This document shows positions 38,039 to 38,866 of a stretch of 64,000 nucleotides of DNA, piece after piece. The stretch's first letter is position 1. Each line of letters starts with the position of its first letter. This DNA comes from Escherichia phage vB-Eco-KMB39. The notes under the pieces were generated by a model, which worked only from the letters and a program-made list of their open reading frames with translations, was not told the origin of the DNA and did not search any database. The translations under genes were made by a program, and so were the position numbers. The DNA is taken from sequence record OR539219.1, one strand, 5' to 3'.

Positions 38039-38068
38039 ATAGTATCACAACTAAAACCCTATGTAAAC
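38039..38068 (-). promoter_or_regulatory. T4-type early promoter (GTTTAC ... TACTAT) with A/T-rich upstream element; approximate
   Basis: Module near-identical to the one at 38369-38398, including downstream ATGTAAACAACTTTGTGAAATTATTTTAAATC. Confidence 0.55.
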
Positions 38069-38080
38069 AACTTTGTGAAA

Positions 38081-38338
38081 TTATTTTAAATCTTCTAATC
38101 GTTTCTTCATCTTAGAACCATTTTTAGCAATTTCTCCTGCATCGGAGCATAACGCTAAAAGTGCTTTAACTTTAGTTTGGTCTCCTTTAAAAGACGAAGG
38201 ATCGACCGCAGCAGCAAGTTCTTTAATACGAGAGAAAAGACGCTCAGCTTCAGCTAAAGCCATTCCAAGCTTTACTTCCATACCGTGGGAAGATTCGGTG
38301 ATAGTAGTTTTTGTAGCAAACTCTTTGAAAGTTTTCAT
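38081..38338 (-). CDS. Internal head protein-like (CTS-bearing) at the T4 ipI locus position
   Basis: 85 aa, N-terminus MKTFKEFATKTTITE/S resembles the internal-protein targeting sequence; located just upstream of 57B. Confidence 0.55.
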   Translation of the reverse strand: MKTFKEFATKTTITESSHGMEVKLGMALAEAERLFSRIKELAAAVDPSSFKGDQTKVKALLALCSDAGEIAKNGSKMKKRLEDLK

Positions 38339-38368
38339 TTTATTTTCCTAATTAATTTTGATGAGGTA

Positions 38369-38398
38369 ATAGTATCACTACCTCATCAGCATGTAAAC
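38369..38398 (-). promoter_or_regulatory. T4-type early promoter; approximate
   Basis: GTTTAC-N18-TACTAT; -10 embedded in inverted repeat GATGAGGTA...TACCTCATC. Confidence 0.55.
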
Positions 38399-38410
38399 AA
38401 CTTTGTGAAA

Positions 38411-38866
38411 TTATTTTAAATCGTCTGCCCAATCGAGTTTAAGAGGTTCTTTGTATTCACGATCTAATACAACCGGAATTTGTACATCACCGCTAAATGA
38501 TAAGGGCCCAACATTATAAGACAATGTTATATGCGGTGTGTAATCATCAAAATCATGTGTAGCACCTAGTGCCCGCGCATACATGTGTCGACAGCGCAGA
38601 TATTCAGAATCTAGCACAAGTACAAGAGTCGATCCATCTTGTGTTTTCCATACTTCTAAATGTCCAGAAGAAGCTACTTCAAAACTTCCACTCGATGGAA
38701 CATATGGAACATTTACTCTCGAATAACATATGGTCGAATGAATTTTTTCTCTAGGAACTGGATTAGGAACACGTAAAGAGCGCTGAAGTTCTTCCAGCGC
38801 ATCAAGTGTTAATTCTGAAAACTTAGCTGCTACATAAAGACCCGTTGAAAAGTCTTTAAATTCCAT
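38411..38866 (-). CDS. 57B: gp57B, a 2H-phosphoesterase-like protein; I recall this being the anti-CBASS cyclic-nucleotide phosphodiesterase Acb1
   Basis: 151 aa with two H-x-T/S motifs (HSTICY, HITLSY) characteristic of 2H phosphoesterases; position between ipI and 57A. Confidence 0.8.

Follow-up and report, generated by a model that had tools for sequence, protein, structure and literature searches.

The gene ip5 of Escherichia phage vB-Eco-KMB39 lies between two near-identical early-promoter modules, and comparison with related phages makes it very probable that gene and promoter together form an exchange cassette, with the modules as the joints at which cassettes are swapped. The DNA analysed, hereafter the window, is a stretch of 64,000 nucleotides (nt) from record OR539219.1, whose positions are used throughout. 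Judged from its genes and best matches, the source is a Tequatrovirus (T4-like coliphage) and the region is the ipI locus. An earlier reading of the same DNA (the original prediction) had placed copies of one promoter module on both sides of an 85-amino-acid (aa) gene at 38081-38338. This was borne out. The 32-nt sequence ATGTAAACAACTTTGTGAAATTATTTTAAATC occurs exactly twice in the window, at 38061-38092 and 38391-38422, with no copies expected (100 shuffles). A direct repeat of 69 nt (38028-38096 and 38358-38426; 84% identity, spacing 330 nt) has this sequence as its core, and a second repeat of 25 nt covers the Shine-Dalgarno (SD) sequences and start codons (38005-38029 and 38333-38357). The features of the locus are as follows (ORF, open reading frame):

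39096-39860, minus strand: gene 1 (deoxynucleoside monophosphate kinase); ORF
39452-39459, minus strand: late-promoter consensus TATAAATA inside gene 1, upstream of 57A and 57B; motif match
38866-39096, minus strand: 57A; ORF
38411-38866, minus strand: 57B, Acb1 anti-CBASS phosphodiesterase family; ORF, Pfam PF23474 (Acb1), E 2.6e-60
38339-38426, minus strand: module A, putative intergenic early-promoter cassette upstream of ip5; repeat, promoter match and likeness to T4
38359-38388, minus strand: hairpin A, a 13-bp palindrome; RNA and DNA folding
38081-38338, minus strand: ip5 (ipV), 85-aa internal head protein; ORF, match to phrog_3499
38011-38096, minus strand: module B, putative early-promoter cassette between ip5 and tRNA.4; repeat and promoter match
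38031-38062, minus strand: hairpin B; RNA and DNA folding
37825-38010, minus strand: tRNA.4-like gene, 61-aa predicted membrane protein; ORF, match to phrog_1692

The promoter modules and the gene between them

Read on the coding strand, each module consists of GAT TTA AAA TAA, the stretch TTTCACAAAGTTG, TTTACA, a 17-nt spacer ending in TG-n, TACTAT, an SD sequence and ATG, in that order. The AT-rich stretch lies between the upstream stop codon and the -35 hexamer in both copies, and the 24 nt upstream of the promoters are 83% A+T. Module A has its shared patch at 38391-38422, the -35 hexamer TTTACA at 38392-38397 and the TG-extended -10 hexamer TACTAT at 38369-38374, with SD and ATG at its 3′ end; in module B the patch lies at 38061-38092, the -35 hexamer TTTACA at 38062-38067 and the -10 hexamer TACTAT at 38039-38044, followed by the SD sequence GAGGAG and ATG. 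The last three codons and the stop come from 57B in module A and from ip5 in module B. The original prediction had described part of the repeat as sequence downstream of the promoter. The genes being on the minus strand, this part is instead the -35 hexamer, the AT-rich upstream region and the D-L-K-stop end of 57B or ip5. Ip5 and 57B, otherwise unrelated, share these terminal codons (38081-38092 and 38411-38422), and the upstream boundary of the repeat therefore falls within coding sequence. A distant Ip5 homolog in one of the loci compared below (L015) likewise ends in EDLK, as does the window's Ip5 inside the repeat.

A promoter scan gave TTTACA-17-TACTAT for both copies on the minus strand, each with TG ahead of the -10 hexamer. 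They match the consensus TTTACW-N17-TAYWAT of the promoter-early stem-loop (PeSL) elements of phages PST and T4, reported in a study that also listed five differences in internal proteins (IPs) between these phages (Comeau, Arbiol and Krisch 2014, PMC4122927). T4 itself has exactly the same hexamers in its promoter regions for ipI and trna.4, and the GenBank record of phage Lutter carries the annotation "promoter" at both sites. In T4, RNAs of ipI and trna.4 are classed as "early" and those of the upstream genes 57B and 57A as "middle" (supplement of PMC9697503). Taken together, the consensus match, the near-identical T4 modules and the timing of the T4 RNAs suggest that each module fires as a sigma-70 early promoter, in agreement with the early character originally proposed; transcription would start at about 38362 (module A) and 38032 (module B). 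About 15 early-promoter-like sites with the same consensus are found on the minus strand of the window, 13 of them besides modules A and B.

IPs of T-even phages carry a leader of the form MKT(Y/F)xEF, followed by an (L/I)-x-E motif that is cleaved by the prohead protease. The 85-aa ip5 product starts with MKTFKEFATKTTITE; it has the capsid-targeting sequence MKTFKEF at its N-terminus and an I-T-E cleavage-type motif at residues 13-15 (context MKTFKEFATKTTITE/SSHG). The protein has a full-length match to phrog_3499 ("internal head protein"; E 1.2e-49); a Pfam search with Ip5 found no family. The leader is common to T4 IpI and 56 unique IPs of the locus. Annotations as Ip5 or ipV are present at this site in ime09, RB32, PST, GiZh and JK08, and the ip5 cargo was found in 268 phage records, including PST (ipV), RB32 (Ip5) and T2. 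By its leader and cleavage-type motif, its homology to the IP family and its position between 57B and tRNA.4, ip5 is a gene for an internal head protein, and the capsid-targeting sequence assigned to it in the original prediction is thus real. The gene is small and non-essential, and its product would be injected into the host. Three IPs of T4, Ip1, Ip2 and Ip3, inhibit GmrSD type IV restriction enzymes, each of them a different one; targets (GmrSD variants) have been identified for these three IPs only (Silas et al. 2025, PMC12373910).

A 157-aa ORF at 34275-34745 (minus strand; phrog_2280, unknown function) has a capsid-targeting-like leader, MKSYTQFLNEA. This ORF is located past the tRNA cluster, some 3.5 kb downstream of the ipI locus, and has a homolog in locus L010. 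It is a candidate for one more internal-protein gene outside the ipI locus.

Cargo exchange and its junctions

A 1.7-kb query around the locus matched 795 phage records. The top identity was 97.4%, and no record in the phage collection reached at least 99% over this query. The best-matching records annotate the kinase (gene 1), 57A, 57B, an "Ip5/ipV internal head protein" and tRNA.4, tRNA.3 and tRNA.2. Gene 1, 57A, 57B, ip5 and the tRNA.4-like gene are all encoded on the minus strand. The 57B gene is annotated as gp57B in ime09, GiZh and T4, and tRNA.4, annotated as such in T4 and GiZh, is the conserved downstream anchor of the locus. An anti-defence-family gene (57B) thus directly adjoins the variable IP site.

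In T4 (AF158101), nearly the same two modules flank ipI, an A-type module between 57B and ipI and a B-type module between ipI and trna.4. In a multiple alignment, the window and T4 are 96-100% identical over 57A, 57B and module A, up to roughly nucleotide 20 of the leader. Identity then drops to 24-48%, the level of noise, over the cargo; it returns to 98-100% at TTTCACAAAGTTGTTTACAT and stays there into tRNA.4. For a wider comparison, 36 further gp57B-encoding loci were taken from IMG/VR. Loci with a 100% identical 57B differ in what follows it: the window has module A, ip5 and module B; L003 has A, ip5, a B′ module, an ip6-like gene and a C module; L034 has the ip6-like gene only; and L033 has a 102-aa IP between A- and C-type modules. 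Two loci whose 57B is 85% identical (L007 and L008) have a single module and no IP gene, and represent empty sites. The proposal that the enclosed gene is exchanged is upheld by these data: identity with T4 collapses between the modules, and relatives carry ip5, ip5 plus ip6, ip6, the 102-aa IP or nothing.

The comparison of cargo among related phages, which the original prediction had suggested, places recombinant junctions inside the modules in the window, L003, L034, L026 and L019. Module B of the window equals B′ of L003 upstream of the 21-nt core GTGATACTATTACCCTATCAA and C of L003 downstream of it, so that the crossover lies in this shared core. In L034, the end of 57B is joined to B′ within the shared 32-nt patch. 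In L026 and L019 the 5′ and 3′ arms of a module are of different types, and crossovers there must therefore have occurred in the loop.

Across 40 loci, each site contains from zero to five leader-bearing genes, whose mature parts fall into 16 families without mutual blastp similarity (E<1e-3). A promoter module precedes tRNA.4 in 33 of 37 loci by a strict regular expression (GTTTAC, 18-nt gap). One of the four misses was inspected (L015) and carries a module with variant hexamers. The expression misses the GTGTAC/GTATAC lineage, and the module count of 27 out of 64 obtained with it is a lower bound. In loci L015-L018 (about 5456-6830), a variant -35 hexamer (GTGTAC, GTATAC or TGTACA) lies between the IP genes of one T4-like lineage, with a GATGGGATAA/TTATCCCATC hairpin around a TATAAT -10 hexamer. 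Seemingly promoterless "gap" junctions in L015, L017 and L018 were rejected, as modules with variant hexamers are present there too. Downstream of the anchor, tRNA.3 (37443-37832 in the window) has two distinct alleles, of about 126 aa (MYKVYADYQANPSE...) and of 132-135 aa (MNVEYYVYADYENN...), in loci whose 57B and tRNA.4 are identical or nearly so; in the loci compared (L003, L034 and L011-L013), alignment identity over tRNA.3 falls to about 36-58%.

These results fit the following scheme. Early after infection, host sigma-70 RNA polymerase would read both modules, module A driving ip5 and module B driving the tRNA.4-tRNA.2 genes and the tRNA cluster. The identical patches of 20-40 nt that modules share (the -35 and upstream region, the -10 core, and the SD sequence with the capsid-targeting leader) would provide portable homology. 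Whole promoter-plus-gene cassettes would thereby be deleted, inserted or replaced without damage to the neighbours, either by homologous recombination or by template switching, between modules of one genome or of co-infecting phages. In this way a palette of IP genes that counter host defences would be kept in circulation. The role of the modules as recombination linkers emerges from the comparison of the loci, whereas the mechanism is the part that we infer.

Mosaicism extends beyond the locus. By local BLAST (68 kb), the window is 100% identical to phage IME340 (MH051916) at 5300-7200, about 92-98% identical elsewhere and about 96% overall, and the ip cargo of IME340 differs (90 aa plus 102 aa). 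Twelve window segments of 100-670 nt have no counterpart in IME340, a mosaicism typical of Tequatrovirus. Four of the 24 ends of homology breaks against IME340 lie in early-promoter modules (0.88 expected, p 0.009). One of the segments, 33214-33767, has -35 hexamers at both ends (33209 and 33766). The corresponding cassette (33181-33790, minus strand) contains a 176-aa ORF of unknown function (phrog_6869), and the promoter at 33766, on the upstream side of this ORF, has a 13-bp palindrome around its -10 hexamer (-18.1 kcal/mol, z -5.4). By its layout, the 33.2-33.8 kb region is a second cassette of the same design as that of ip5.

Hairpins around the -10 hexamers

The original prediction had noted that the -10 hexamer of the upstream module lies within an inverted repeat. 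Hairpin A is indeed a 13-bp palindrome, GATGAGGTAGTGA/TATTACCTCATC, with the -10 hexamer in its loop and upper stem. It folds at -17.4 kcal/mol as RNA (z -5.96; none of 200 shuffles as good) and at -8.1 as DNA (z -4.35). The downstream module has such a structure too: in hairpin B, an outer ATAGGGT/ACCCTAT stem and an inner AGTT/ACTA stem (one G·U pair as RNA) enclose the -10 hexamer (RNA fold -14.2 kcal/mol, z -2.99; DNA fold -5.5, z -2.13). The stem sequences of the two hairpins differ.

Conservation of the structure was assessed in 46 unique ip-locus modules from 40 loci, a set of related sequences for which the statistics are indicative only. Arms in their native pairing give more stable folds than cross-paired ones (mean -10.8 versus -6.4 kcal/mol, p 4e-7). 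In the fixed register 66.8% of cells are paired, compared with 31-41% after slides of ±1, ±2 or +3 and 55.5% after a slide of -3. Two-sided changes affect 45 cells versus 28 expected, and the covariation score is 0.280 versus 0.219, with none of 500 shuffles as high. The stems vary widely at an invariant position (GATGAGGTA/TACCTCATC, ATAGGGTA/TACCCTAT, GGGCT/AGCCC, TAGGACT/AGTCCTA, GTAGGGAT/ATCCCTAC and GATGGGATAA/TTATCCCATC). The fold z-scores, the pairing of native arms, the register and the covariation are together indicative of a hairpin under selection. With palindromes around both -10 hexamers and stems that covary over the 46 modules, the combination of promoter and stem-loop that had been proposed for these cassettes is well supported.

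By analogy with the PeSLs of phage RB49, the hairpin probably acts as an insulator or attenuator of upstream transcription, as a preferred crossover site, or as both. The predicted transcription starts lie inside the 3′ arm, and a complete hairpin would thus require read-through RNA, or else DNA that is single-stranded or extruded. No late promoter was found directly upstream of ip5, the closest TATAAATA being the one within gene 1; this site (39452-39459) could provide late read-through RNA carrying hairpin A ahead of ip5.

Palindromes that enclose a -10 hexamer are also present at site 21957 (21911-21959, minus strand; -19.6 kcal/mol, z -6.3) and at site 26969 (26923-26971, minus strand; -10.3 kcal/mol, z -3.4), where the 3′ arm extends into the Shine-Dalgarno sequence AAGAGGAG. 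A weak one is seen at site 29725 (29679-29727, minus strand; z -1.8). The fold test detected none at the early promoters at 6245, 18755 and 34104.

The original prediction had also pointed to a similar module near 6240. Two features are relevant there:

6216-6262, minus strand: third, partial copy, a putative early promoter downstream of nrdC, with the -35/upstream half ATAATTTTCACAAAGTTGTTTACA
6325-6339, minus strand: GC-rich terminator-like hairpin (GGGCCCTCTGGGCCT then TTCTTTCT), about 80 nt upstream of the -35 hexamer of the partial copy

The likeness is confined to the -35/upstream half, which agrees with AATAATTTCACAAAGTTGTTTACA at 21 of 24 positions. The spacer is its own, the TG-extended -10 hexamer is TATTAT, and no hairpin surrounds it (fold z +0.56). 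The position of the terminator-like hairpin is the arrangement of PST-type PeSLs, with a stem-loop upstream of the promoter (cf. the legend of Fig. 3 in Comeau 2014).

Known systems and alternative explanations

The polymorphic ipI (IP1) locus of T-even phages was described by Repoila, Tetart, Bouet and Krisch (1994, EMBO J 13:4181), to whom Arbiol 2010 and Comeau 2014 credit the observation; their work is also related in Silas 2025. The model itself is set out in Arbiol 2010 (PMC2839356) and Comeau 2014 (PMC4122927). The window shares with this locus the position (57B-tRNA.4), the modules, the N-terminal leader and the alternative IP cargoes. Nothing essential differs, and the window is one more allele, with ip5 alone. 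The cassette architecture has thus been described before (Repoila 1994; Arbiol 2010; Comeau 2014) and is not a new principle; the junction and covariation analyses add detail to a described T-even feature.

PeSLs were defined in RB49 and phi1, where promoter and terminator activity as well as mini-circles were demonstrated (Arbiol et al. 2010, PMC2839356). The window modules have in common with them an upstream stop codon, AT-rich sequence, an early promoter whose stem-loop lies between the -35 and -10 hexamers or covers them, an SD sequence and a start codon. As in RB49 and phi1, they flank small variable genes, crossovers fall in or next to the loop, and deletion and insertion of cassettes is proposed. 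Modules A and B are PeSL-like in being composite elements with a stable stem-loop at the promoter and junctions within the element. RB49 PeSLs, in contrast, have near-perfect sigma-70 hexamers (TTGACA/TATAAT) and GGGG...CCCC stems, whereas the window has TTTACA/TACTAT and AT-richer, variable stems (GATGAGGTA/TACCTCATC and ATAGGGT/ACCCTAT) without a U-tract; termination and mini-circles were shown by experiment in RB49, whereas the window modules are known from sequence alone. The lack of near-consensus hexamers and polyG/polyC stems agrees with the view that the T-even IP-locus elements, with T4 early promoters and weaker AT-rich stem-loops, are analogs and not homologs of RB49 PeSLs (PMC2839356). 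PST/T4-type elements have the same promoter consensus as the window modules and are associated with differences between T4 and PST, the five IP differences among them, and PST has ipV at this very site; in the PST figure the stem-loops are drawn just upstream of the promoter, whereas in the ip5 modules the palindrome encloses the -10 hexamer. Integron attC cassettes, an analogy taken from Arbiol 2010, are likewise small promoter-associated cassettes with imperfect palindromes of conserved structure and variable sequence. The ip5 cassette differs in having no integrase, no evidence of site-specific recombination and a promoter for each cassette, and the likeness is an analogy only.

Several points weigh against the exchange-cassette explanation or limit it. 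Promoter activity is deduced from the consensus and the T4 expression classes, and the sequences used for covariation are related and non-independent. No U-run follows either hairpin (the next sequence is CAAAAUUAAUUAGG or CAACUACUGAGG) and a scan for intrinsic terminators reported nothing at either one. Because of the missing U-run the hairpins are not canonical intrinsic terminators, and the terminator role of RB49 PeSLs may not transfer to them. L019 and L026 retain chimeric modules whose stems are weakened; the hairpin is therefore not strictly required. In a wider T4-like set, 31 of 64 IP genes directly follow their upstream neighbour without an intervening promoter. The module is thus a frequent but not an obligatory joint, and shuffling also proceeds without it, perhaps by way of the conserved leader. 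Identities of only 9-21 nt suffice for some crossovers, a length that is short for classical T4 homologous recombination and would be compatible with template switching or a nuclease-initiated event. Finally, the comparisons do not distinguish insertion from deletion for each event.

The short identities and the chimeric stems of L019 and L026 would be explained if the -10 palindromes were structure-specific, attC-like recombination sites that actively target exchange to the loop, through cutting of a cruciform or hairpin by endonuclease VII or through hairpin-induced template switching. Position and register of the palindromes are conserved while the stems covary freely between module types; we nevertheless consider such sites, proposed by analogy, unlikely. 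It is very unlikely that the modules are simply two strong early promoters kept alike by selection for promoter strength, with no part in recombination and with cargo differences arising by illegitimate recombination or "moron"-type accretion. Many early promoters in the window do share GTTTAC-18-TAnnnT and parts of the upstream TTTCACAAA motif, and in other lineages half of the IP genes have no promoter at the joint. However, the identity is 32 nt long and takes in spacer-proximal bases outside the consensus as well as the D-L-K-stop codons at the ends of two unrelated genes. Moreover, the junctions in L003, L034, the window, L026 and L019 lie inside shared patches and give chimeric modules, and the edges of the modules are exactly where homology with T4 is lost.

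The cargoes could instead be diverged paralogs and the repeat a remnant, both left by an ancestral ip gene that was duplicated in tandem along with promoter and leader. In favour of this, all cassettes share the promoter, the SD sequence and an N-terminal leader of about 10 aa, both ip5 and 57B have the D-L-K-stop end within the repeat, and small proteins diverge fast. Such a duplication is nonetheless very improbable: the 16 families of mature parts lack similarity at the blastp threshold given above, cargo is present or absent between loci in which 57B is 100% and tRNA.4 98-100% identical, too recently for divergence, and the same ip5 stands beside a 57B of only 83% identity, at another array position, in L015. 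A homing endonuclease is also close at hand. An ORF of the GIY-YIG/NUMOD3 type (35657-36304, in the region 35640-36308; phrog_314, E 1.5e-55) lies about 1.8 kb downstream of the locus, in the tRNA cluster between tRNA-Ser and tRNA-Gly. The tRNA-Pro that GiZh and Lutter have at this position is absent from the window, in which only nine tRNAs were found. In crosses of T-even phages, marker exclusion and the co-conversion of neighbouring sequence are known effects of Seg endonucleases, and a SegB-like enzyme might bring about exchange mainly by co-conversion, the repeats being bystanders. This is extremely improbable, since co-conversion tracts would not stop repeatedly within promoter patches of 20-30 nt, breakpoints are internal to modules on both sides of single cassettes of 250-300 nt, and the tRNA.4 to tRNA.2 genes, between endonuclease and ip5, are 95-100% identical in L033 although its cargo differs.

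Exchange of promoter-flanked cassettes thus remains the explanation that we favour for the ip5 locus. The window offers a clean worked example of it, with exact junctions, covarying hairpins and a second cassette at 33.2-33.8 kb. Mildly novel, though unlikely, would be a role of the covarying -10 palindromes as sites of active recombination or structure-specific recognition as opposed to passive homology; the target of Ip5 itself would be more rewarding to pursue. IPs are injected anti-defence effectors, and the cassette design explains how T4-like phages reshuffle them quickly, which bears on host range and on the design of phage therapy.

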